From Halorientalis salina (lineage in GTDB: Archaea > Halobacteriota > Halobacteria > Halobacteriales > Haloarculaceae), in the NCBI RefSeq assembly GCF_005049285.1, contig NZ_SOSC01000010.1, forward strand, positions 69,662 to 93,661: a DNA stretch of 24,000 nucleotides, in the 5' to 3' direction. Numbering within the stretch: position 1 is the stretch's first letter; each line of letters opens with the position of its first letter. Positions 7,104-21,867 of this stretch are shown in pieces. The notes under the pieces were generated by a model. The model did no database searches. It saw only the letters and a list, made by a program, of their open reading frames with translations, and was not told the DNA's origin. Both the position numbers and the translations under genes were made by a program.

Positions 7104-7113
7104 AGTATATACT
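7104..7113 (+). promoter_or_regulatory. TATA-like perfect palindrome AGTATATACT upstream of the soluble transducer gene
   Basis: AT-rich palindrome centred ~22-28 bp upstream of the ATGs at 7131 and 7137. GAGGTGAGG (Shine-Dalgarno-like) lies at 7122-7130. Confidence 0.45.
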
Positions 7114-7130
7114 GTTCTGGTGAGGTGAGG

Positions 7131-8795
7131 ATGGTAATGAGTAGCATGAGGCGAATAACTCGGTTCGTTCACTCGTCTCGTCTCGCCGCGTTGGTTCGGT
7201 CCGACACCGACGACCACTCGGAGACGGACGCGACGACCACTGGCGAACCGGACACGGGGGGAACCGACAGAGAGCGGACGACTTCGGAGGACGGCTCGGA
7301 CCAGATGGCGCTGGAGACGACCGATGACGAGGGTGCGGGGGAGACGAATTCCACGTCGTCACCCGTCGGGACAGGCAGCGACCACACGCCAGTCGCCTCG
7401 GACGGCGGGACACACACGGTCGACGCGGCAGCCGCGTCGACCACGTCGTCGCTGGAAGCCACAGCCCGCGACTTCCGCGACGCCATGGCGGCCGCGGCGG
7501 ACGGCGACATCAGTCAGCGCCTGGACACGGACCGGGACAACGACGCGATGGCGGAGGCCGCGTCGGCGTTCAACGAGATGATGACGCATTTCACCGACAC
7601 CGTCGGGGAGTTAGAGGAGTTCGCCGAGGACGTCGACGACGCGACCGAGGAGATGAGCGCCGCCACCCGCGAAGTCAAGGAAGCCAGCGAAGAGGTCAGC
7701 GGGTCGATGGACCAGATCTCGAACAACGCCTCGAAGCAGGACGACCACCTCCAGGAGGTCGCCGACGAGATGACGGACCTCTCGGCGACCGTCGAGGAGA
7801 TCGCCTCCTCGGCCTCGGAGGTCGCCAGTATCTCCAGGGACGCCGCGGAGTTCGGGCAGGAAGGCCGCGACGCCGCCGAGAAGGCCGTCGATCGGATGGA
7901 CGAGATCGAAACGACGGCCGACGACACCATCGAGCAGGTCGAACACCTCGAAGAGCACATCTCCGAGATCAACGAGGTCGTCGAAGTGATCGACGAGATC
8001 GCCGATCAGACCTCGATTCTGGCACTGAACGCCTCGATCGAGGCGGCGCGAGCGGGCGAGGCCGGCGAGGGGTTCGCCGTCGTCGCCGACGAGGTCAAGC
8101 AGTTGGCCGAGGAGGCCAGCCAGGCGACCGAGGATATCAGCGAGATGATCACGGACGTCCAGGACGAGACGACGGCGACGGTCACGGAGATCCGCGAGAT
8201 GGGAGAGCACGTCTCGGAGGGGACGGACACCGTCGAGGAGGCGCTCGAAGCGCTCGACGCTATCGCGGACCGCGTCGAGGACGCCAACGACGGCGTCCAG
8301 TCGATCAACGAGGCCACCAACGAACAGGCGGGGAGTACCGAGGAGGTCGTCGCACTCGTCGAGGAGGTCGCCGACCTCAGCGAGCGGACGGCCGACGAAA
8401 CGCGCGAGGTGTCGGCCTCGGCAGAGGAACAGACCGCCGCACTAACCGAAGTGGCGGCCAACATGGACGGGATCGCCGACCAGGCGACTACCCTCACCAC
8501 GCTGCTCGACGACTTCGAGCGACGCGACGGGGACGGCGGCGACGACGACGATCTCGCCTGGGACGATGCGATGGTTCACGACGGTGACGACGAGGAGGAC
8601 GCCGCGGAAGAGACAGCAGCAGACAGCGACGAGGACGACGACCTCGCCTGGGACGACGCGATGGTTCACGACGGCGACGACGGCGGCGCTGGCGACGAGG
8701 ACGGGACGGGCGGAGAAACGACGGATGCGGACAGCGGCTCCGACGAGGAAGAAGAGATCTCCTGGGACGACGCGAAAGTCCACGACGGGAGTTGA
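7131..8795 (+). CDS. soluble (cytoplasmic) methyl-accepting chemotaxis transducer (Htr-type) with repeat-bearing acidic C-terminal tail
   Basis: Canonical MCP signalling hairpin [40 protein letters not shown] and a HAMP-like segment GDISQRLDTDRDNDAMAEAASAFNEMM. I see no hydrophobic TM segment. The first ~110 aa are Thr/Asp/Gly/Ser-rich low complexity. Start ambiguous: GTG 7125, ATG 7131/7137/7146 or ATG 7305. Confidence 0.9.
   Translation: MVMSSMRRITRFVHSSRLAALVRSDTDDHSETDATTTGEPDTGGTDRERTTSEDGSDQMALETTDDEGAGETNSTSSPVGTGSDHTPVASDGGTHTVDAAAASTTSSLEATARDFRDAMAAAADGDISQRLDTDRDNDAMAEAASAFNEMMTHFTDTVGELEEFAEDVDDATEEMSAATREVKEASEEVSGSMDQISNNASKQDDHLQEVADEMTDLSATVEEIASSASEVASISRDAAEFGQEGRDAAEKAVDRMDEIETTADDTIEQVEHLEEHISEINEVVEVIDEIADQTSILALNASIEAARAGEAGEGFAVVADEVKQLAEEASQATEDISEMITDVQDETTATVTEIREMGEHVSEGTDTVEEALEALDAIADRVEDANDGVQSINEATNEQAGSTEEVVALVEEVADLSERTADETREVSASAEEQTAALTEVAANMDGIADQATTLTTLLDDFERRDGDGGDDDDLAWDDAMVHDGDDEEDAAEETAADSDEDDDLAWDDAMVHDGDDGGAGDEDGTGGETTDADSGSDEEEEISWDDAKVHDGS
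8553..8789 (+). repeat. three copies of an 11-aa motif in the transducer tail: LAWDDAMVHDG (8553-8585), LAWDDAMVHDG (8643-8675), ISWDDAKVHDG (8757-8789)
   Basis: Read directly from the translation and DNA. Copies 1 and 2 are identical in protein and nearly identical in DNA. Each copy follows an Asp/Glu run. The third copy ends one residue before the C-terminus. Confidence 0.9.
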
Positions 8796-8850
8796 TCGAC
8801 GGACGGTCGTGGACAGACGTGAGCTATCAGGGATGAGAATCGCGGAGTAA

Positions 8851-8863
8851 TACTAATAATTAG
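8851..8863 (+). promoter_or_regulatory. AT-rich TATA-like element (tactaataattag) ~26 bp upstream of the first paralog ATG
   Basis: This is the only AT-rich block in the 8796-8882 spacer. The spacing fits a leaderless or near-leaderless haloarchaeal transcript. Confidence 0.45.
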
Positions 8864-8882
8864 TTGGGAGACAGACACACAC

Positions 8883-9281
8883 ATGCCGTACAAGTCCGGA
8901 GAGAGCTGGGAAGTGGACATCGACCAGGGAACGAACAGGCTGTACCTCGAACTCGACGGATACCTCGAGAGCGACGCGGCCGGTGCGGCGGCGGACGCGA
9001 CGATAGAAGGGGCAAAGAAGCTGGATGCGGGGTTCGACATGATCAACGACCTCTCGAACTTCCAGCCCTCCGACGAGGAGGCGATGAAACACATCGAGCG
9101 CGGGAAGAAAGGCATCGCCAAACACGACGTGGCCGCCGTCGTGCGCGTGACGTCCGAGTCGACGACGGGACAGATGCAGTTCGACCGCGCCGGCGAGGAC
9201 GAGGAGAGCTATCAGCTCGCGATGGCCGACTCCCAGGAGAAAGCCGAGAAGCTACTGGACAAGCGACGCGAACAAGCATGA
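8883..9281 (+). CDS. small acidic protein, paralog 1 of 4 (STAS/SpoIIAA-like layout, uncharacterised family)
   Basis: 132 aa. It shares the pattern W-x-V-x-I/T-D...NRLYL-x-L-x-G...GFD-x-IND-x-S-x-F-x-P...ERGK...RV-x-SESTTGQMQFDRAGE...YQLA...AEKLLD with the next two genes. Confidence 0.85.
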   Translation: MPYKSGESWEVDIDQGTNRLYLELDGYLESDAAGAAADATIEGAKKLDAGFDMINDLSNFQPSDEEAMKHIERGKKGIAKHDVAAVVRVTSESTTGQMQFDRAGEDEESYQLAMADSQEKAEKLLDKRREQA

Positions 9282-9349
9282 GAGAGACCCACTATCAACG
9301 GTGAAAAACGGCGAGGAACGCTTTTGACCGGTACCGCGATACTCGCCCT

Positions 9350-9727
9350 ATGGGCGACTGGAGCGTCGAAATCGACGAGGAGCGGAGTCGAATATACCTC
9401 ACGCTGTCGGGCTACCTGGAGCTATCGGAACACGAGAAGGTGGCCGACGCCGTGACAGAGGCCGCGATCGACATGGACGGCGGGTTCGACCTCGTCAACG
9501 ACATGTCGAGTTTCGAGCCGGCCAGCGAGGACGCGATGGCGGAGATCAAACGCGGGAAGCGCGGCCTCGCCGAGAACGGTATGGAGGCCGCCGTCCGCGT
9601 CGTCTCCGAATCGACGACCGGCCAGATGCAGTTCGACCGCGCCGGCGAGGGCGTCGAGAACTACCAGCTCGCAAAGGCGAACTCGATCGACGAGGCCGAG
9701 AAACTGCTGGACTCGCGGGGCGACTAG
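9350..9727 (+). CDS. small acidic protein, paralog 2 of 4
   Basis: 125 aa. By hand count, 79 of 125 ungapped positions are identical to paralog 3. It contains the identical 15-mer SESTTGQMQFDRAGE. Confidence 0.85.
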   Translation: MGDWSVEIDEERSRIYLTLSGYLELSEHEKVADAVTEAAIDMDGGFDLVNDMSSFEPASEDAMAEIKRGKRGLAENGMEAAVRVVSESTTGQMQFDRAGEGVENYQLAKANSIDEAEKLLDSRGD

Positions 9728-9802
9728 GGAGACCCAGTCGTCGGACAGTCGGCCCGGGACGGGCTGAAACACGTGAGCGATTCGATCACACGGAGAACAC
9801 AC

Positions 9803-10186
9803 ATGGGCACTTGGAACGTCGACACGGACGAGGAGAAGAACAGACTGTACCTATCCCTGGACGGGCACTTCGAGGTCGAGGAAGTGGCGGAAGCGGCGGA
9901 TGCGGTTATCGAGGCCGCGGAGCGACTCGACCCGGGGTTCGACGAGATCAACGACATGTCCGGGTTCGAGCCGGCCGACCAGGAAGCGATGGACCACATC
10001 GAACGGGGCAAACGCGGGATCACCGAAAACGGCGTCGCGGCCGTCTGTCGCGTCGTCTCCGAGTCGACGACGGGCCAGATGCAGTTCGACCGCGCCGGCG
10101 AAGGCGAGGAGGACTACCAGTTGGCGAAAACCGACTCCATCGAGAAAGCCGAGAAACTGCTCGACGCGCGCCGCGAGGACAACTGA
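9803..10186 (+). CDS. small acidic protein, paralog 3 of 4
   Basis: Internal ATG of ORF 9773..10186. MGTWNVDTDEEKNRLYL aligns with the N-termini MGDWSVEIDEE and MGQWSVDVDEE of paralogs 2 and 4. GGAG lies 8-11 nt upstream. Confidence 0.85.
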   Translation: MGTWNVDTDEEKNRLYLSLDGHFEVEEVAEAADAVIEAAERLDPGFDEINDMSGFEPADQEAMDHIERGKRGITENGVAAVCRVVSESTTGQMQFDRAGEGEEDYQLAKTDSIEKAEKLLDARREDN

Positions 10187-11658: not shown

Positions 11659-12240
11659 ATGCGAGAAGACGGGACAGCCGAACCCGACGGCGACGACGAC
11701 CGGGCCGACGAGGGTCTACCCGCGACATCGTCGATCGACGGCGCTGTCGGCGAGGAACTGACGCGACTGCGCGGCGAGATCGAGCAGCTATCGGTCGCGG
11801 TGGCGACCCTCCAGGAGGCCGACGAGGAGCGCGAACAGCGGCTCTCGGACCTCGAAACGCGCGTCGAGGACTACCAGCGGCGCGGCGAGCGCGAGCGCGA
11901 GCAACTGGCCGCACAGACGCTGGCCGACTTCGCCGACCGCATGCTGTCGGTCAAGGACAGCCTCGACAACGTCCTCGGGATGGCCGACCTGGACGAGGAC
12001 ACCGACCGACAGCTCTCGCTGGTCCGCAAACAGTTCGAGCAGTCCTTTACCGGCGGCGAGGTCGAGCGCATCCGCTCGGACGGCCAGTTCGACGCGAGCC
12101 GACACAAGATGGTCGAACGGGTGCCGGCCGACGACCGCGACGACGGCGAGATCGTCCGAGAACTCGACGCGGGCTATGCTCTGGGGGACCGCGTCCTCAG
12201 ACCGGCCCGCGTCGTGGTCGCGAAAGGCGACGGCTCCTGA
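11659..12240 (+). CDS. grpE: nucleotide exchange factor GrpE
   Basis: Acidic N-terminus, a long coiled-coil (LRGEIEQL...LETRVEDYQRRGEREREQL) and a C-terminal beta domain with GQFDASRHKMV (the FDPxxHxA-type motif) and GYALGDRVLRPARVVVAK. Confidence 0.85.
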   Translation: MREDGTAEPDGDDDRADEGLPATSSIDGAVGEELTRLRGEIEQLSVAVATLQEADEEREQRLSDLETRVEDYQRRGEREREQLAAQTLADFADRMLSVKDSLDNVLGMADLDEDTDRQLSLVRKQFEQSFTGGEVERIRSDGQFDASRHKMVERVPADDRDDGEIVRELDAGYALGDRVLRPARVVVAKGDGS

Positions 12241-12255
12241 CTCGTCGCCGAACGA

Positions 12256-13257
12256 TCAACCGCCAGCCAGATACCCGGCCAGTCCGCCGATGGCGACCGG
12301 GTAGACAAGCCCCATTATCAGAACTGCGCTGCCAAGGTCCGGCTGAATCGTGACGACGCCACCGGTCCCGCTGTACGAGAAGACGGTCATCGCGCCGAGG
12401 ACCGTGAGCGCGAGGTAGCCGACGGCGATCGTCGCGCCGGCCCGGGCGCTGTCGAACCGGGAGACGGGTTCGTCCATCGACGCTCGCGAGGCGAGTATCA
12501 TCCCGAACAGCAAGAGGAGCACTGCCGGGACGACGTAGTAGGCGATTTTCGGCACTATCGGGTCCAGCGTGGCGCTGTAGGCCTCTTCGACGAAGTTTAT
12601 CGACTCGTCACCGGCCGAGTCCGTAGTCTGGACTCCGTGTGCCGAGTAGAAGAACCAGCCGAACAGCGCGACCAGCGCATCGACCGAGTCCTCCACCGGA
12701 AGCACGCCCAGCCCGTCGCTGTCCTCCACTTCCAGGAGGACGAAGGCGGAGATGACGACGAAACTGATGAGATACGAGAACAGCCCGTAAATGACGCCGC
12801 CGACGATGGGCAGGTCCGAGAGCAGACTCGTGGCCGTTCCGGTCGTCTGCTGGTTGCCGCCCTGACGCGTGCCGCCACCGCGCTGGGCTCCCTGGCCCTG
12901 TCGCTGGTGACCGCCGGGCTGACTGCCCTGCGTCGGTTGCTGGTAATTGCCGGACTGACCACCCTGGCCCGGTTGCTGCTGACCGCCCTGCGTCGGTTGT
13001 TGCCGGCCGCCCTGCGTCGGTTGCTGTGGACCGCCACCGGATTGCTGGGGTTGGCCCCCGCCGACACTGACGGGTTGCCCGGACTCCTGGGTCCCCGATC
13101 CGGGCTGTTGGGGCGGTGTCTGGCCGGTCCCGTGTTCGTCGCCCTGGGTCGGTTGCGTGCCCTGTCCACCCTGCTCGTCCTGTGACAGCGTCACGCCACA
13201 CTCGGGACACTGCCGGTTCTGTGCGGACACCTCGGTCCCGCACGACGGACAGTACAT
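12256..13257 (-). CDS. zinc-ribbon membrane protein with a long Gln/Gly/Pro-rich low-complexity domain
   Basis: N-terminal MYCPSCGTEVSAQNRQCPECG (CxxC-x11-CxxC zinc ribbon). A Q/G/P/T-rich region of ~115 aa follows, with reiterated QQPTQGG units, then a C-terminal domain with several hydrophobic TM segments. Confidence 0.85.
   Translation of the reverse strand: MYCPSCGTEVSAQNRQCPECGVTLSQDEQGGQGTQPTQGDEHGTGQTPPQQPGSGTQESGQPVSVGGGQPQQSGGGPQQPTQGGRQQPTQGGQQQPGQGGQSGNYQQPTQGSQPGGHQRQGQGAQRGGGTRQGGNQQTTGTATSLLSDLPIVGGVIYGLFSYLISFVVISAFVLLEVEDSDGLGVLPVEDSVDALVALFGWFFYSAHGVQTTDSAGDESINFVEEAYSATLDPIVPKIAYYVVPAVLLLLFGMILASRASMDEPVSRFDSARAGATIAVGYLALTVLGAMTVFSYSGTGGVVTIQPDLGSAVLIMGLVYPVAIGGLAGYLAGG
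12838..13182 (-). repeat. Q/G/P-rich low-complexity coding region with imperfect reiterated units (QQPTQGG; DNA unit gccctgcgtcggttg on the + strand occurs 3 times)
   Basis: Read directly from the translation (aa 26-140 of the zinc-ribbon protein) and from the DNA. Confidence 0.85.
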
Positions 13258-13326: not shown

Positions 13327-14928
13327 TCAGGACCCGACCTGTGCCGTATCGCTGCCGTCGTCGGGCGAGGTGCCGGTGACGTTCTGTTCGACGGTGAGCG
13401 AGCCCTCGGCGTCGCCGTCGATGTCTTCGGCCGTCACGTGGAGAATGCCGTCGTCGTCGATCCGGAAGGTCACCTCGATGGTCGGGTCGCCGGCCGGGGC
13501 CTCCGGGATGCCGGTGAGCGTGAACTCGTCCAACTTCTCGTTCTCGCGAGCCGTTTCGTGTTCGCCCTGAAACACGTCGATGGCCATGATCGTCTGGTCG
13601 TCGCGGGTCGTCGTGTAGTACTTCGTCCCCGTCGCTTCCGTGATGGGCGTCCCCTTCTCGATCAAGACGTTGAAGCTGCCGTCCTTGACGCGGGTGCCCA
13701 GCGAGCGTGTGACGATGCTTTTGACCGTGATCTCGCCGCGTTCCTCGACTTTCTCGGCGTGATCCGCTGCCCCGTGTGCGTCGTCGACGTGGTTCTGGAA
13801 CGCCTCGCGGGCGTCGAAGGTCTCGCCGCAGGTGCAAGCGTACTGCTCCTCGACGGCCCCGCTCTTCTCGGCGTACAGCGCCGCCCCCTTCGCGACGATC
13901 TTGTCCGGTTCGAAGGTCAGTTCGGGATCGACGCCGGTGTAGTCGGCGACGCGTTCCTGGATGGCCGGCATCCGCGTCGACCCGCCCACCAGCAAGACGG
14001 TGTCGACGTCGCGGGTCGTGCGGTCGGCGTCGTCGAGCGCCTGTTCCAGCGGGGCCAGGGCTCGTTCCCGGAGGTCCTCCGTGATCGACTCGAAGGTGTC
14101 GCGGGTCAGCGTCTCCTCGACGTCGACGATCTCGCCGTCGACCTGGCCGAGTAGCGGTTCGATGAGTTCTGTCTCCGCGGCGGTCGAGAGGTCGATCTTC
14201 GCGCTCTCGCCGAGCGAGCGGAGGTTCGCCCGGAGTTCGTCCGCGGCCAGGACGTCGATGCCCCGGTCCCCCTCGATCCGGTCGGCGACGTGTTCGACGA
14301 TCGCCTCGTCGAAGTCGGTGCCGCCGAGGTGGTTGTCGCCACTGGTCGTCAGGATGGTGAAGGTGTCGTCGGCGATCTCCAGAACGGAGACGTCGAGCGT
14401 GCCGCCGCCGAAGTCGTAGACCACGAGCGTCTCCTCGTCGAGGCCGGCGTCGTAGCCGTGGGCGATGGCCGCCGCGGTCGGTTCGTTCAGGAGCGTGATC
14501 TCGTCGAAGCCGGCCAGTTCGGCTGCCCGTCGGGTCGCCTTCTTCTGGTCTGCGGTGAAGTAGGCCGGGACGGTGACGACGGCTCTCGTGACTTCCTCAC
14601 CGAGATAGGACTCGGCGTCAGCCTTGAGTTTCCGGAGGATCTCGGCGGAGATCTCGGCGGGGTCGTAGGACTCGCCGTCGATCTCGACGCCGTCACCCGT
14701 GCCGATGTGGCGCTTGATGGTTCTGATCGTTCGGTCGGGATTGGCGGGGGCGCGGTTCTCGGCGCGCCGGCCGACCACCGGGTCCCCGTCGTCGTCGAAG
14801 CTGACGACCGACGGCGTCAGCGGCTCGCCCTCGTTGTTCTGTAACATCTGGACGTCGTCGCCCTCGATGAGCGCCATGCCGCTGTTGGTCGTCCCGAGAT
14901 CGATCCCCAGGGCCTTCTCACTGACCAT
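13327..14928 (-). CDS. Hsp70/DnaK-family ATPase paralog, lid-less, with a zinc-finger-like insertion between the NBD and SBD
   Basis: MVSEKALGIDLGTTNS, VTVPAYF, NEPTAAAIAHG, DFGGGTLDVS and LVGGSTRMPAIQ are Hsp70 NBD motifs. IPEAPAGDPTIEVTFRIDDDGILHVTAED is the SBD-beta signature. The protein ends shortly after SBD-beta, at 533 aa from ATG 14928, with no helical lid or EEVD-like tail. AGGTG lies 11 nt upstream of the ATG. Confidence 0.9.
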   Translation of the reverse strand: MVSEKALGIDLGTTNSGMALIEGDDVQMLQNNEGEPLTPSVVSFDDDGDPVVGRRAENRAPANPDRTIRTIKRHIGTGDGVEIDGESYDPAEISAEILRKLKADAESYLGEEVTRAVVTVPAYFTADQKKATRRAAELAGFDEITLLNEPTAAAIAHGYDAGLDEETLVVYDFGGGTLDVSVLEIADDTFTILTTSGDNHLGGTDFDEAIVEHVADRIEGDRGIDVLAADELRANLRSLGESAKIDLSTAAETELIEPLLGQVDGEIVDVEETLTRDTFESITEDLRERALAPLEQALDDADRTTRDVDTVLLVGGSTRMPAIQERVADYTGVDPELTFEPDKIVAKGAALYAEKSGAVEEQYACTCGETFDAREAFQNHVDDAHGAADHAEKVEERGEITVKSIVTRSLGTRVKDGSFNVLIEKGTPITEATGTKYYTTTRDDQTIMAIDVFQGEHETARENEKLDEFTLTGIPEAPAGDPTIEVTFRIDDDGILHVTAEDIDGDAEGSLTVEQNVTGTSPDDGSDTAQVGS

Positions 14929-14991
14929 CTCGACTACACCTGCCTCGCCGCGGCATATCACGCTTTCGCCCGATGTGAGCGACGAAGCCGG

Positions 14992-17208
14992 TCAATCGTC
15001 GCCTCCGGAGGGTACCGCCTGTATCTTCTCGTCGCCCGCGTCGATCTCGAAGGCGGCGAGCATCTCCTGGAGTTCTCGGGTCCGCTCGGCCAGGCTCGCC
15101 GCCGAGTCCGACACCTGGCTGATCGAGCTGCTGGCCTCCTCGGAGGCGGCGGCGACGGTCTCGGCCTGCTGGGTGGTCTCCTCGGAGACGCTGGCGATCT
15201 CGTCGACCATCCGGACGATCTGCTGGGCAGAGTCGGCCTGTTCGTCGGTGGCGTCGTTGATGCTCTTGAGGCCGCCGTCGACGCTGTCGACCCCGTCGAC
15301 GATCGCTTCGAGCGAGTCGGTCAGGTCCTCGACGGTCTCGGTCCCCTCGGTGATGCGGGACTCGGCTTCGCGGATGTCCTCGGCGCTGGCCGTCGCCCGG
15401 TCCTGGACCGACGAGATGGTCGTCTCGATCTCGTCGACCGCCCGCTGGGTCTCCTCGGAGAGTTCCTTGACCTCCTCGGCGACGACCGCGAACCCGGAGC
15501 CGGACTCGCCGGCGCGGGCGGCCTCGATGTTGGCGTTCAGCGCCAGAATCGAGGTCTGCTCGGCGATCTCGTCGATCAGACGAGTCACCTCGCTGATCTC
15601 GTCGATCTCGTCGGTGAGCCGCTCGATCGACTCGACTACGTTGCCCGTCTGTGCCTCGATGGACTGCATCTCCTCGATGGTCGCCTCGGCCTGCTCGCGG
15701 CCCTCGGCACCGAGTTCGGCCACCCTGTCGGACTGGCTGGCGACCTCGTCGGTCGTCGAGGCCACCTCCTCGATGGTCGCCGAGAGGTCGTTGACCTCGT
15801 CACCCGTCGCCTGCAGGTCCTCGGTCTGTTCCTGTGCGCCCGTCGAGATTCCCTGGATGGAGCGGCTGACCTCCTCGCTTGCCTCCTTGACCTCGCCGGC
15901 GCTGTCCTCGACGTCGTGACTCGACGCGGCGACGTCCTCGGCGAACTGCTGGACGTCGGCGACGGTCCGTTCGAGGTCGGCGATCATCTCGTTGAACGAG
16001 TCGGCGATCGACTGCATCGCATCACTGTCGGTTTCGGGGTCGAGCCGCCGGGTGAGGTCGCCGTCCGCACAGGCCGCCATCGTCTCGCTGTAGCGTTCGG
16101 CCTCGGCTTCGAGCTGCTCGTTGAACCGCTGGGTCTCGAGTTCGCGCTGTTCGGCCTCCTCGCGTGCGCGTTCGGCCTCGGCTCTCGCGTCGTCGGCTTC
16201 GGCCAGGGACTCCTTGAGCGAGTCGCGCATCGCGCCGAACTCCCCGTAGAGCATCCCGACCTCGTCGGTGCGGTCGGTCTCCAGTTCGACGTCCAGGTTC
16301 CCCTCGCCGATCTCGCTGGCCCGATCCGCGAGCTGGCGCAGCGCCAGTGCGAGGTTGCCACCGATGGTGATCCCGAACACGCCGAGGTTCAGGGCGATGA
16401 CGTACAGGAGCGCGACGAGCCCCGCCGTCGCGGTGTTCCGGTCAGTGTACACCACGTCGCTCGGCGCGTACGTCACGACCTGCCAGTTCGTGTCGGCCAC
16501 GCCCGCCCCCGTCGTCGCGAACTCGGACCCGTCGACGGTCGTCGTCTCGATGCCCTCGTCGCCGGCCAGGTCCGCCGCGCCCGTGGCGTTCCACGCCGTC
16601 GACCCGGATGCGGCCACTGGGGTTCCGTCGACCACGAGCGCCGTCGCGTAGCCGTCGTCCGCGATCCGGGACTGCAGGGACGCCGTCGAGGCGTCCACGA
16701 CGATCGCGCGGTCCGCGTCGACCGCCGCCACGAACGGCACGACCGTCGCGTCACCGCTCACGGCCGCCCGCGGCGTGCCCGCGACCGCCTCGCCGTCGCC
16801 GGCGTCACCGACCGCGACCGTCTCGCCCGTCGCGTCGCTCGCCGAACTCGACAGTATCTCGCCGCTCGTCCGGTCGACGTAGTGGACCGCGGCGACGCGA
16901 TCGGCCCCTGCCGCCCGGTCGAGTCGATCCGCGATCCGGTCGGTATCGCCGCTCTCGACGGCGCTCGACGTCGCGACGCCGGTGGCGAGTGCCTCGTTCG
17001 AGTCGGCCCACAGCGCCGTGACGTTGGCACCGTCGCTCGCGTGGTCGGTGAAGGCCGCGTCCGCCGACTGCCCGAGTTCGCCGGCAACGTTACCGTAAAA
17101 AAAGGCGGTCGAGACCAGCGTGATCAGGAAGACCACGCTGAGCGTGACCACCATCTTCAGGCTGTAGCTCGACCTGACCCGATCCAGTACGTTCGTATCG
17201 AAGTTCAT
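14992..17208 (-). CDS. membrane-bound methyl-accepting transducer (HtrII-like: TM1, ~220-aa extracellular Cache-like domain, TM2, HAMP, MCP signalling domain)
   Basis: TM1 [23 protein letters not shown] and TM2 [33 protein letters not shown] segments ([26 protein letters not shown], and [26 protein letters not shown]) and the MCP core [40 protein letters not shown]. Confidence 0.93.
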
Positions 17209-17335
17209 GTGTCCTCACTTCCGGGCCGCATACCCCGTGTGAATCGTACCCGAACGATGCCAGTCGTCTCGGTAAAACCTGACGGGCGGATTATTAGATC
17301 CGATAACAAACCACTTCGAGGTTGATTACGCATCG

Positions 17336-18091
17336 TCAATCACCGGCCGGGGTGTCGGCGCTCGGTGGGTGCGTTCCGTCGTCGCGGAAGTAATCGAGCG
17401 GCGTCGGGTGCTCGGCCGCGAGTTCCCGGATCGCGGTCGGCGCTCGCAGCAGGATTCCGCCGAACCCGATGTGCCCGAGCAGGTCGAGGTAGCCGCCGAC
17501 GTAGACGCCGGTGAACGTCCCGAGGAGCCCGAGGCCCTGGCGGGAGGTCAGTCCGACGACGAGGTACATCAGCATCAACAGCGCCATGAGGTTCCGGAGT
17601 TTCCCGAAGAGCAGCCGCCGGGCACCGGTCACGGCCTGGGCGGACTGGGTGTAAGGGAGGAAAAGCAGGTAGAGAGCGCTGGCGATCGATGCGAGAACCA
17701 TCAGTTTGCCGCCGCTGTCGAAGGGCACTGGAGCGAGCCAGTTTATCAGCGTCCCGGTCACGAACCCGACGAGCGCGATCATTCCAGCGAGCGTGAGCCG
17801 GCGACTGGCGTCCGCGAGTACGCCGATCGACGCGACCACGAGCGGATACGTGAACAGGTACATCAAGAACCGCGAGACGGGAACCGGTTCGCCGCCGGGA
17901 CTGTGAAGGACGAGCAGCTGGTTGGCCATCGCGAAGTAACCGATCATCAACATCCCGGATGCGAACGGTGCGAGCAGCAGGTACTGGCGCGTCGTCCCGG
18001 AGAACTGGCGGAGTCTGGCGACGAAGCCGAGTGTCGCGACGAGCGCCACGGTCGAAACCAGCAGATAGAACGTGCTCTCGGGAATGATCAT
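17336..18091 (-). CDS. bacteriorhodopsin-family (type-1 opsin fold) 7TM protein lacking the retinal-binding lysine (His at the Schiff-base position)
   Basis: Seven hydrophobic segments that align helix by helix with BR and sensory rhodopsin II. Helix C is [14 protein letters not shown] (BR: ARYADWLFTTPLLL). Helix F is [18 protein letters not shown] (BR: VLRNVTVVLWSAYPVVWL). Helix G is [17 protein letters not shown] (NpSRII: YLDLVTKVGFGFIAL; BR: LDVSAKVGFGLILLRS). Start taken at ATG 18091 ([11 protein letters not shown]). The ORF-track start at 18184 is a TTG that adds a basic 31-aa extension. Confidence 0.85.
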
Positions 18092-18190
18092 GATGCCTCC
18101 GATCGTCGGGGTCGGACGACGAGTCGCGAGCGCTGTGCGGTCGTGTCCGGCGGAGCGGTCCCAGACCCGATACTCGACATGCAAGAACGT

Positions 18191-18215
18191 TCGATTAAAC
18201 TACAGTATAAAAGTA
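18191..18215. promoter_or_regulatory. AT-rich block (tcgattaaactacagtataaaagta) in the 225-bp divergent spacer between the opsin-like gene and serS
   Basis: It contains TATA-like cores readable on both strands (GTATAAAAG on +, CTTTTATAC and GTTTAATCG on -). It lies ~100 bp from each start codon, which implies 5' leaders of about 70-90 nt if it is used. Confidence 0.35.
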
Positions 18216-18316
18216 CGCTCCCTCTTCTCATACATGATATTGCCACCCACGGACGGGACGGCGCCAACGGGCCAGAGCGACACGGTTTTGCCACGCCACG
18301 GCAAACCGACTGCCAA

Positions 18317-19696
18317 ATGATCAGCAGGCAGTTCCTCCGTGAGAACCCCGATGCCGTCCGGGACGCCCTCGAACAGAAGGGCGTCGACGACGTCGACCTG
18401 GACCGGATACTCGAACTCGACGAGGAGTGGCGCGAACTGAAAGCGCGGGGTGACGACCTGCGCCACGAGCGCAACGAGGTCAGCTCGAAGATCGGCCAGC
18501 TCAAACAGGACGGCGACGAGGAAGCCGCCCAGGACGCCATCGAGCGCTCCCAGGAGCTCAAGGACGAACTCGAGGACGTCGAGGAGACCGCCGACGGGTT
18601 GAAAGACCAGCTCGAAGACGCGATGCTGGAGCTCCCCCAGATCCCCCACGAGGACGCCCCCGTCGGCGACGACGAGAGCGACAACGTCGAGGCCTACCGC
18701 GAGGGCTTCGACGACGTCGACGTCATCGACGACGTGACGCCCCACTACGATCTGGGCGAGGAGCTGGGCATCCTGGACTTCGAACGGGGCGCGAAGGTCA
18801 CCGGCGGCGGCTTTTACTTCCTTCGCGGTGACGGCGCGCGACTCGAACACGCGCTGATCCAGTTCATGCTCGACGTGCACCGCGAGCAGGGGTACTCGGA
18901 CATCTACCCGCCGGTGCCGGTCAACAGCGCCTCGATGCGCGGGACCGGCCAGTTCCCGAAGTTCGTCGACGACGCCTACCGGGTCGGCGAGCGCAACGAG
19001 GAGCCCTACGACGACGACGACCTCTGGCTCTGCCCGACGGCGGAGGTGTCGGTCACGAACATGTACCGCGACGAGATCCTGCTGGACGGCGACCTGCCGC
19101 TGAAACACCAGGCCTTTTCCCCGAACTTCCGGCGGGAGGCCGGCGAGCACGGGACCGAAACCAGGGGCATCGTCCGCGTCCACCAGTTCAACAAGGTCGA
19201 ACTCGTCAACTTCGTCCGTCCCGAGGAGAGCTACGAGCGCCTCGACGGCCTGCTGGGCGAAGCCGAATCCGTTCTCCAGAAACTTGGCCTGCCCTACCGC
19301 GTCCTGGAGATGTGTACCGGCGACATGGGCTTCACCCAGGCCAAGAAGTACGACATCGAGGTGTGGGCCCCCGGCGACGACATGGAAGACGGTCCCGAGG
19401 CGGGCGGTCGCTGGCTCGAAGTCTCCTCGGTGTCGAACTTCGAGGACTTTCAGGCCCGACGCGCCGGCCTGCGCTACCGGCCGGAGCGCCACGAGTCCGC
19501 CGAGTACCTCCATACCCTGAACGGGTCGGGGCTTGCAGTCCCCCGGACGATGGTCGCCATCCTGGAGTACTACCAGAACGAGGACGGCACCGTCACCGTC
19601 CCCGAACCGCTCCGGCCGTACATGGGCGGCCAGGAAGTCATCGAGGGCCACGACCCGGTCGGCGAGAGCGCGCTCGGCTCCGGCGAAAAGGAATAG
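18317..19696 (+). CDS. serS: serine--tRNA ligase
   Basis: [22 protein letters not shown], an N-terminal coiled-coil arm, then class II motifs ([43 protein letters not shown]). Internal ATG of ORF 17369..19696, giving 459 aa. Confidence 0.95.
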
Positions 19697-20598: not shown

Positions 20599-21867
20599 TC
20601 ACTCGTTCGGATCTTTCAGGTCCAGTTCGATGTCCTCGTCGTCCTCGTCGTTGCGCTCCGCGTCGTCGCCATCGTCTCCGACACGCTCCTCGGCGGCGTC
20701 CTCGGAACCGACAGCCTCGGTCCCGTCCCGGTCGTCTTCGTCACCGTCGAGATCGAACTCGACGCCGTCGGGAACTGTTGGCTCCGTCGCGTCCGCCGGC
20801 TCCGTCGCGTCCGCCGGCTCCGTCTTGTCCCCGTCGACGGCCACGTCCCGGACCGCAGCGTCGACGTCCTCGTCGGTCTTGGGTTCGCCCGTGGCGTCCC
20901 GACCTGGTTCCGAGGTCGTCTCGTCGTCGGCGGGGTCGGTTGGCGCGTCGAGGTCGTCGCCGTCGTCGCCCGCGGCGCTCGCCGCTGTGGCCGCGTCGGC
21001 ATCGAGAGAGATGTCGTCCGGGTCCGGCGGTTCCCCGATGTCGCGGGCGGTCTCCAGCGGCGATTCGGCGTCCTGCCGGTAGTTGTCGGCCTCCTCGCCG
21101 TTCCCGCTGGCGTACTGGTTGGCCGACTCGGCCAGCCACTCGGCGGCCTGCCACAGCGACGTGGTCTTCTCCTGGGCGCGCTCGAATCCGGCTTCGAGCG
21201 GACCGGACTCGGCGAAGCGGACGGCACTCTGGAACCGGTCGGCCGACTCCCGGAACTCGTCCATCGCGCGCTCGAAATCGCCCTGGGCGATGAGCCAGTC
21301 GCGGTCCTCGTAGCTCCCCATCGCGCTCGTGAAGGCCCGTCGGCCCTCCATGTAGTGGGCGTGGCCGACCCGATAGCGGCCGACGGCCGTCGAGTCGCCC
21401 CCGATGTCGGCGGCGGCCTCGCGCACGTCGTCGACGGGGGGCCGCTCCTCCAGGTCGGTCGTCGACCAGGCGTACTGGACGACCCCGCGCTGGTCGACGA
21501 CGAAGACGGCTCGCTCGGCGAGCAACTGATCGCTGGCGTCGTATTCGACGTCGTACGCCCCCATCGCCTCGCCGCGGGTGTCCGAGAGGAGCGGGAGCGA
21601 CAGGGAGTACTCCTCGGCGAAGGCCCGGTGGCTGAACACGCTGTCGGGCCCCACGGCGAAGACGTCGACGTCTTGCTGCATCGTAAAGAGGTCCAGTTCC
21701 GTCAGGTCGCAGGCGTCCTCGCCGCAGGCCGGGTTGAAATCAGCCGGGTAGAACGCGAGGACGAGGATGCCGTCCCCGACGTAGTCGGAGAGGTCGACGT
21801 CGCGCGGTGCTCCGTCGACGACGCCCGGCAGGGTAAACGTCGGCGCGTCCGACCCTTCGGATAGCAC
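20599..21867 (-). CDS. Bcp/PrxQ-type peroxiredoxin fused to a helical domain and a long acidic disordered tail
   Basis: N-terminal thioredoxin-fold domain with FYPADFNPACGEDAC (C-x4-C as in Bcp/PrxQ). A ~100-aa helical segment follows (GRYRVGHAHYMEGRRAF...WQAAEWLAESANQY), then ~170 aa of Asp/Glu-rich sequence. GTG start at 21867, with a TATA-like element 27 bp upstream. Confidence 0.85.
   Translation of the reverse strand: MLSEGSDAPTFTLPGVVDGAPRDVDLSDYVGDGILVLAFYPADFNPACGEDACDLTELDLFTMQQDVDVFAVGPDSVFSHRAFAEEYSLSLPLLSDTRGEAMGAYDVEYDASDQLLAERAVFVVDQRGVVQYAWSTTDLEERPPVDDVREAAADIGGDSTAVGRYRVGHAHYMEGRRAFTSAMGSYEDRDWLIAQGDFERAMDEFRESADRFQSAVRFAESGPLEAGFERAQEKTTSLWQAAEWLAESANQYASGNGEEADNYRQDAESPLETARDIGEPPDPDDISLDADAATAASAAGDDGDDLDAPTDPADDETTSEPGRDATGEPKTDEDVDAAVRDVAVDGDKTEPADATEPADATEPTVPDGVEFDLDGDEDDRDGTEAVGSEDAAEERVGDDGDDAERNDEDDEDIELDLKDPNE
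20780..20824. repeat. 18-bp tandem repeat, 2.5 copies (ggctccgtcgcgtccgcc), encoding TEPADA-TEPADA-TEP on the minus strand
   Basis: Read directly. It lies inside the acidic tail of the peroxiredoxin fusion. Confidence 0.85.

Follow-up and report, generated by a model that had tools for sequence, protein, structure and literature searches.

Opsin-related proteins (ORPs) of haloarchaea are members of the microbial rhodopsin family that lack the lysine forming the Schiff base with retinal. They were described as a class by Becker et al. (2016; PLoS One 11:e0156543, PMC4915679), who assigned to it 48 of 170 haloarchaeal opsins, i.e. nearly 30% of those encoded by the 80 haloarchaeal genomes in their survey, and found these proteins to be monophyletic. 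Here we analyze an ORP gene of Halorientalis salina (family Haloarculaceae), located in a 24,000-nucleotide stretch of contig NZ_SOSC01000010.1 (the whole stretch is referred to below as the window), together with the adjoining gene for an HtrII-type transducer (Htr). The H. salina protein carries histidine at the Schiff-base lysine position and represents an undescribed His-bearing subgroup of the known ORP class that is centred on Halorientalis.

Two ORP groups have been distinguished (PMC4915679). At the lysine position (K216 in bacteriorhodopsin, BR), group A possesses arginine, and group B leucine or another hydrophobic residue. Further replacements concern residues of sensory rhodopsin II (SRII), i.e. 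W76 to Asp and Y174 to Leu in group A, Y174 to Leu and W178 to Gly in group B. The retinal pocket is not conserved in ORPs (SRII W178 is replaced by Gly or Ala, F127 by a non-aromatic residue). Signalling residues are kept, namely SRII Y199 and, in group B, also Y51 and R72. A gene for a transducer with HAMP and methyl-accepting chemotaxis protein (MCP) domains adjoins the ORP gene in 15 of 16 group A and 17 of 32 group B cases. Most ORPs are transcribed, and the published models contain a predicted cavity accessible from the extracellular side. A non-photic sensory role was already proposed for ORPs from the same kind of evidence as is used here (PMC4915679). We found no functional follow-up on haloarchaeal ORPs in the searchable literature.

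A histidine-bearing subgroup of the ORP class

The H. salina ORP belongs to the microbial (type-1) rhodopsin family and has kept the seven-helix fold. The Pfam model PF01036 (Bac_rhodopsin) matched with 56.6 bits (cut-off 24.6; E 3.4e-15), aligning residues 5-217 with positions 3-220 of its 224 positions; no NCBIfam model matched the protein. In a phmmer search against PDB sequences, deltarhodopsin (6e-15), cruxrhodopsin, SRII (1e-10) and BR (1e-9) were retrieved. An AlphaFold2 model based on a 22-sequence alignment consists of seven helices (pLDDT 88, pTM 0.85). When it was compared with the PDB by Foldseek, SRII/HtrII complexes (5jjn, 1h2s, 5jje), BR and deltarhodopsin ranked first, with TM-scores of 0.77-0.81 on the query and 0.85-0.92 on the target. 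The original prediction, made from the DNA letters, had claimed that the protein aligns with BR and SRII along all seven helices and that the scaffold has probably been retained; profile, model and structural comparison all agree with it, to a degree far beyond chance.

Residue correspondences were read from 166 family members that had been aligned by MAFFT together with BR and SRII of Natronomonas pharaonis (NpSRII). Residue numbers refer to the 251-aa protein; adding 31 gives the 282-aa numbering of the original prediction. His207 occupies the place of the Schiff-base lysine (BR K216, NpSRII K205) and is preceded by Gly206. In all phmmer alignments printed, this histidine stands under the Schiff-base lysine (e.g., that of LDLSAKVGFG), and two substitutions are needed to turn its codon into AAA or AAG. 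The helix-C counterion D85 of BR is replaced by Met77, and D96 by Ser88. Of the BR pocket residues W86, W182, Y185, P186, W189 and W138, replaced by or equivalent to Tyr78, Met173, Tyr176, Leu177, Gly180 and Lys129, respectively, only Y185 is retained, and bulkier residues are found at former pocket positions (T90Y, M118F, S141V, T142L). Besides Tyr176, Arg74 (BR R82), Thr81 (T89) and Asp203 (D212) are kept as markers of the fold. The histidine, the methionine at the counterion position, the serine at D96, the dismantled pocket and the four fold markers had all been pointed out in the original prediction, and every one of them recurs in this alignment; the CAC codon named there is confirmed as well. 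The H. salina ORP thus probably carries no chromophore. As far as computation goes, this supports the interpretation given in the original prediction, in which chromophore binding was probably lost and the protein would be a non-photic sensor or a regulatory partner.

When 1.84 billion representative proteins were searched with a profile, 304 relatives were found. A neighbour-joining tree of 161 sequences (200 bootstraps) separated Lys-bearing rhodopsins (BR, SRII and others) from a Lys-less group with 92% support, and the H. salina ORP fell into the latter; its core clade had 80% and an extended His-bearing clade 73% support. Note that the tree was calculated by neighbour-joining only and without the sequence set of Becker et al.; one of its Lys-less representatives comes from Natrialba hulunbeirensis, which these authors list. 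The Lys-less group is the ORP class of Becker et al. (PMC4915679), and both published groups are reproduced among the tree representatives: Arg-types in which W76 is Asp and Y174 is Leu (including those of Natronomonas), and hydrophobic types (including that of N. hulunbeirensis). Two further lineages, Natronosalvus hydrolyticus (P0026, with P0020) and P0049, likewise have histidine at position 216.

Like the ORPs of Becker et al., the H. salina protein lacks K216, its pocket is not conserved, the equivalent of Tyr199 is kept and a gene with HAMP and MCP domains adjoins; the order of the genes, with the ORP preceding the Htr, is different. Unlike group A, it has His, Tyr and Tyr at the positions of K216, SRII W76 and Y174, and the Arg/Asp-types form a separate clade. 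Unlike group B, it has His at K216 and Tyr at Y174, shares only the W178 to Gly replacement and belongs to another subclade than the Natrialba-types. P42, Y82, T182, R184 and Q185 are signatures specific to its clade. Histidine at K216 is not mentioned by Becker et al., whose table does not include the genus Halorientalis (PMC4915679), and our literature search revealed no later paper describing a His-type ORP. As the protein fits neither group A nor group B and we found no description of the His-type, we regard it as the representative of a new subgroup of the known class.

Of 23 clade members, 22 carry the histidine, which is kept across ORP sequences of 41-94% identity. The exception is Halorientalis brevis (locus L001, 6001-6753), a cultured species with glutamine at this position, an intact ORP-Htr operon and a dN/dS of 0.18 for the ORP versus its nearest relative. 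This variant, as well as a homologous Natrinema Htr paired with an Arg-type ORP, weakens the idea that histidine is strictly required. In total, 19 columns are invariant across 22 aligned ORP sequences with identities down to 32%, and Tyr201, Tyr52 and Arg74 are invariant in the clade. Nei-Gojobori dN/dS was 0.23 for the ORP against a 94%-identical metagenomic copy (L010), 0.18-0.22 for the next closest pairs and 0.32-0.48, with saturation, for more distant ones. Synteny is kept in four Halorientalis species (H. salina, H. brevis, H. marina and sp. IM1011) and several metagenomes. The ORP gene is under purifying selection and is a maintained gene.

Away from the docking face, Glu5 (BR Glu9), Tyr9, Arg74, Tyr78, Tyr82, Tyr176 and the loop SRQGLGLL are invariant or nearly so. 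The conserved residues form two clusters, one at the old Schiff-base site (Tyr52, Arg74, Tyr78, Tyr82, Tyr176, Asp203, His207) and one on the extracellular side (Glu5, Tyr9, Lys129 and the SRQGLGLL motif of the F-G loop). The F-G loop is probably extracellular, judging by its homology to BR residues 192-199. Despite its near-invariance, no other segment within the seven-helix core has a modelled pLDDT below 50, which would fit a loop that needs a partner or a ligand to become ordered.

The residues at BR positions 85 and 216 covary in an alignment of 160 opsin-family representatives. An acidic residue (Asp or Glu) is found at position 85 in 44 of 48 sequences with Lys at 216 and in 18 of 26 with Arg, and in 1 of 26 with His and 0 of 61 with an uncharged residue. 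The sole His-type with Asp at 85 is from the cluster to which Halorientalis sp. IM1011 belongs. Throughout the family, Arg82 and Asp212 are nearly always kept. As His-types lack the acidic residue in the same way as the uncharged types do, whereas the Lys- and Arg-types keep it, the simplest reading suggests that the buried charges stay balanced and that the histidine is accommodated in neutral form.

As to the gene itself, the minus-strand open reading frame (ORF) at 17336-18184 comprises 282 codons from a TTG. This TTG-initiated version was ruled out as the gene: 21 of 21 homologues as well as WP_136718076.1 start at the ATG at 18091, and a search of the protein collection gave no match to the 282-aa version and an exact one to the 251-aa version. 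RefSeq labels WP_136718076.1 as 'bacteriorhodopsin [Halorientalis salina]', and the JGI names of close ORP relatives are 'sensory rhodopsin' or 'bacteriorhodopsin'.

The adjoining transducer and its extracellular domain

The original prediction had also announced an informative genomic partner of the opsin-fold protein. This partner is the Htr, which has 100% identity to an H. salina MCP at NCBI (Table 1). Its N-terminus with the first transmembrane helix (TM1) and especially the region from TM2 to the first HAMP domain (HAMP1) align to the N. pharaonis HtrII (NpHtrII) chains of SRII complexes (2f95_B, E 2e-20). In complex structures such as 1H2S, Asn74 of HtrII forms a hydrogen bond with Tyr199 of SRII. 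Both residues have equivalents in H. salina, i.e. Asn274 of the Htr and Tyr201 of the ORP. The asparagine is invariant in 8 of 8 Htr orthologues. Tyrosine at the SRII-199 position is present in 23 of 23 clade members and 85 of 91 other ORPs, and in only 17 of 50 Lys-bearing opsins.

The Htr gene adjoins the ORP gene in 12 of 14 loci examined. The ORP is followed by the Htr in the window and in L010, L009, L012, L001 (H. brevis), L002 (H. marina), L005, L007 and L014 (Halorientalis sp. IM1011); the Htr is divergent from the ORP in L015 and precedes it in L003 (Natronosalvus) and L016. The spacer between the two genes varies from 1 to 138 nt in orthologous loci, being 1 nt in L007 and 2 nt in L014.

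Between TM1 and TM2, the Htr has an extracellular part of about 215 residues (~43-258), to which no Pfam or NCBIfam model matched. The protein database contains Htr orthologues with 60-77% identity, and more distant Htr homologues carry the Pfam domain dCache_1. In an AlphaFold2 model of this part (27-sequence alignment; pLDDT 85-94), a long helix is followed by two alpha/beta modules, and Foldseek retrieved double-Cache domains, i.e. those of Mlp24 (3c8c), Mlp37 with serine, taurine or arginine, Tlp3, DctB and PscC, with TM-scores on the target of 0.6-0.73. The extracellular domain of the Htr is therefore predicted to be dCache-like.

Table 1. Features of the ORP-Htr locus and neighbouring genes (positions in the window)
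Feature	Position	Strand	Remarks
ORP gene	17336..18091	-	251 aa plus stop; identical to RefSeq WP_136718076.1
Arg74-Phe-Leu-Met77	17861..17872	-	Arg74 = BR Arg82; Met77 at the position of the helix-C counterion Asp85
Lys129	17705..17707	-	at the BR Trp138 position; core clade K15/Q1/R1
F-G loop motif Ser183-Arg-Gln-Gly-Leu-Gly-Leu-Leu190	17522..17545	-	S183, R184, Q185, L190 invariant, G186-L189 nearly so (22 sequences)
Tyr201-Leu-Asp203	17483..17491	-	Tyr201 = NpSRII Tyr199, Asp203 = BR Asp212; both invariant in the clade
His207 codon CAC	17471..17473	-	position of the Schiff-base Lys; His238 in 282-aa numbering
Intergenic region	18092..18316		between the ORP and a divergent seryl-tRNA synthetase gene (ATG at 18317)
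GGAGG	18096..18100		in the intergenic region, five bases upstream of the ORP ATG
TTTTATA	18206..18212		in the intergenic region; AT-rich, candidate archaeal TATA element
ORP-Htr spacer	17209..17335		127 nt between ORP stop and Htr start
Htr, HtrII-type transducer	14992..17208	-	738 aa; TM1, ~215-aa extracellular domain, TM2, HAMP, MCP signalling domain
Htr Asn274 codon AAC	16387..16389	-	TM2; aligns with NpHtrII Asn74
Hsp70-like protein	13327..14961	-	544 aa; right after the Htr; below the NCBIfam DnaK cut-off
Zinc-ribbon membrane protein	12256..13257	-
GrpE	11659..12240	+
MCP	7104..8795	+	563 aa; without HAMP or detected sensor domain
Three small acidic ORFs	8823..9281, 9305..9727, 9728..10186		after the 563-aa MCP

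Possible roles of the ORP-Htr pair

We favour, with a probability of about 0.58, the reading that the ORP is a retinal-independent subunit docked in an SRII-like manner on the HtrII-type transducer, where it would provide a second input to, or modulate, a taxis receptor with a dCache ligand input. The ORP would sit in the membrane bound to the Htr encoded downstream, its helices F and G docking onto TM1 and TM2 of the latter, with a Tyr201-Asn274 hydrogen bond as in SRII-HtrII. It could act as a light-independent input or as a modulatory subunit. Its conformational state would be relayed, presumably in this direction, by TM2 and HAMP; the MCP signalling domain would receive it and act via CheA/CheY on the archaellum. 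The complex would have two inputs, the ORP and the dCache-like domain, because the Htr carries its own domain with a fold by which other receptors bind ligands; HtrII of Halobacterium, with serine and SRII, would be the precedent. The physical ORP-Htr complex and the transfer of information by the ORP are both inferred.

Some observations weigh against this reading. The contact of SRII Thr189 with HtrII Glu43/Ser62 is not kept (Gly191 in the ORP, Asn40/Ala262 in the Htr). Two of the examined loci, L011 (with a His-type ORP) and L004, are without an adjacent Htr, and the 127-nt spacer of H. salina may contain a separate promoter. Furthermore, the dCache domain of the Htr alone could do all the sensing, the ORP being passive. 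As the Htr has its own dCache-like domain, the ORP need not be the only or the main sensor.

This last point leads to the main rival, which we consider possible though clearly less probable than an ORP that contributes a signal. The Htr would be an ordinary dCache chemoreceptor, and the ORP a relic of an SRII-HtrII ancestor that only supports the transmembrane helices structurally or in assembly and transmits no signal. The confident model of a dCache-like extracellular domain is in line with that, and so is the observation that residue 216 varies among ORPs with homologous Htrs, being His in Halorientalis, Gln in H. brevis and Arg in Natrinema. The HtrII of Halobacterium salinarum mediates serine taxis without SRII. 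The charge-balancing covariation of positions 85 and 216 would fit a purely structural constraint as well. However, the conserved residues of the ORP are not confined to the F/G docking face, as they are also found in the interior and on the extracellular side; dN/dS is similar in ORP and Htr (0.23 vs 0.25); and in L003 a His-type ORP is paired with an NpHtrII-like transducer without an extracellular domain.

Another reading concerns the old Schiff-base site. His207, Asp203, Arg74 and Tyr52/Tyr78/Tyr82/Tyr176 may form a titratable switch that replaces SRII's Schiff-base/counterion pair: if the histidine were protonated, or if an ion bound by way of an extracellular half-channel (Glu5, Arg74, Lys129 and the SRQ loop), helices F and G would move as light makes them do in SRII. 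If true, this would be a notable finding, i.e. an opsin scaffold that serves to sense pH, proton-motive force or ions. We consider such a switch unlikely because of the Gln variant in H. brevis, the Arg-type relatives and the probable neutral form of the histidine.

A role independent of the Htr is unlikely. Bacterio-opsin inhibits lycopene elongase, and an inhibition of bacterioruberin synthesis mediated by opsin is known from Halobacterium. The ORP might correspondingly regulate carotenoid synthesis, or have a role in membrane stress together with the products of the neighbouring Hsp70-like and GrpE genes, both of which lie after the Htr in the window as well as in L005 and L009. Stress genes were also found near some ORPs by Becker et al. 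(PMC4915679). Nevertheless, L007 and L014 have the ORP-Htr pair without the chaperone block, no carotenoid gene is present in the window, and the transducer-contact tyrosine of the ORP is invariant.

It is improbable that the ORP is still a photoreceptor, with retinal or another chromophore bound non-covalently or via a lysine elsewhere, e.g. Lys129 at the position of BR Trp138. Lys129 is present in 15 of 17 core members, the equivalents of Tyr185, Asp212 and Arg82 are kept, and an alternative ORP chromophore was left possible by Becker et al. (PMC4915679). Lys129 could, however, be ruled out as a relocated Schiff-base lysine, as two orthologues carry Gln or Arg there, with which no Schiff base is possible. 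Furthermore, W182, W189, P186 and W86 are replaced, the bulkier side chains listed above take up space in the former pocket, and two ORPs supplied with retinal gave no pigment at 480-580 nm (PMC4915679).

Finally, a decaying pseudogene or an isolated degenerate SRII copy, an explanation that could be raised from the loss of the lysine and the counterion and that had been named beforehand as fatal to the original prediction, is refuted by the intact frame, the dN/dS of about 0.2, the histidine conserved in 22 of 23 clade members at 41-94% identity, the orthologues without lysine and the synteny in four Halorientalis species and metagenomes.

Several features of the neighbourhood deserve to be mentioned in their own right. 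The Hsp70-like and GrpE genes recur in L005 and L009 (with a gene for a DUF7978 protein between them in L009), and neither is found in L007 or L014. The 563-aa MCP gene is followed by three small acidic ORFs, for which Pfam and NCBIfam gave no match. L007 contains a block that matches 7104-10186 in gene sizes and order, and the large gene of this block aligns to the MCP region of the window Htr. The gene at 20599-21867 encodes an AhpC/TSA peroxiredoxin domain with an extremely acidic C-terminal extension of ~280 aa; such fusions, variable in length (410-561 aa), also occur in L005, L007, L010 and L014.

Significance and comparison with known systems

At the class level, Lys-less ORPs, their link to transducers and the non-photic hypothesis are already known. 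New here are the His subgroup, the HtrII-like Htr with the conserved Tyr/Asn contact, the predicted dCache-like domain on this Htr and the covariation of positions 85 and 216. The His subgroup offers a clean test system with a compact operon, cultured Halorientalis species, an HtrII-like transducer and a conserved contact pair; it has a chemically reactive histidine at the old Schiff-base site, and H. brevis provides a natural His-to-Gln variant. Note also that, because RefSeq names a lysine-less ORP 'bacteriorhodopsin', surveys that count PF01036 as evidence of phototrophy or phototaxis will miscount such genes.

The best structural match of the H. salina ORP is the N. pharaonis SRII-HtrII system (1H2S, 5JJE, 5JJN, 2F95), with TM-scores of 0.79 on the query and 0.87-0.91 on the target. 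The pair from H. salina keeps the equivalents of Tyr199 and Asn74, and its Htr is homologous to NpHtrII in TM1, TM2 and HAMP1. Unlike NpSRII, the ORP has neither Lys205 nor Asp75 (His207 and Met77 instead) nor a retinal pocket; unlike NpHtrII, the Htr possesses a 215-aa extracellular domain, and the gene order is reversed.

The architecture with a dual input resembles that of H. salinarum HtrII, the transducer of SRII, in which an opsin-fold partner and a large extracellular domain are likewise combined on one transducer. This HtrII was reportedly found by Hou and co-workers in 1998 to sense serine as well, through its periplasmic domain. The opsin partner in H. salinarum is, however, a true retinal photoreceptor, whereas the H. 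salina ORP cannot bind retinal covalently, and ligand binding by the H. salina Htr domain is only predicted from the fold, unlike serine sensing by the H. salinarum protein.

A sister system is present in Natrinema sp. CBA1119 (L017, 4001-7011). Its Htr is 45% identical over the full length, including the extracellular domain, and is paired with an Arg-type ORP that shares the SRQGLGLL loop and the helix-G Tyr/Asp with the H. salina protein. Unlike the latter, the Natrinema ORP has Arg at the lysine position and Asp at D85, and there the Htr gene precedes the ORP gene with a 4-nt overlap.

Outside the haloarchaea, the bacterial Rh-noK and flotillin-associated rhodopsins (FArhodopsins) are comparable in that the rhodopsin architecture is kept and retinal binding is lost; their function is considered unknown or regulatory (PMC10308929; bioRxiv 10.1101/2025.04.29.651185). 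Unlike the H. salina ORP, they belong to bacterial proteorhodopsin/xanthorhodopsin lineages and have no Htr/MCP partner, their genes adjoin a pump paralogue or a flotillin gene instead, and FArhodopsins often keep the lysine.

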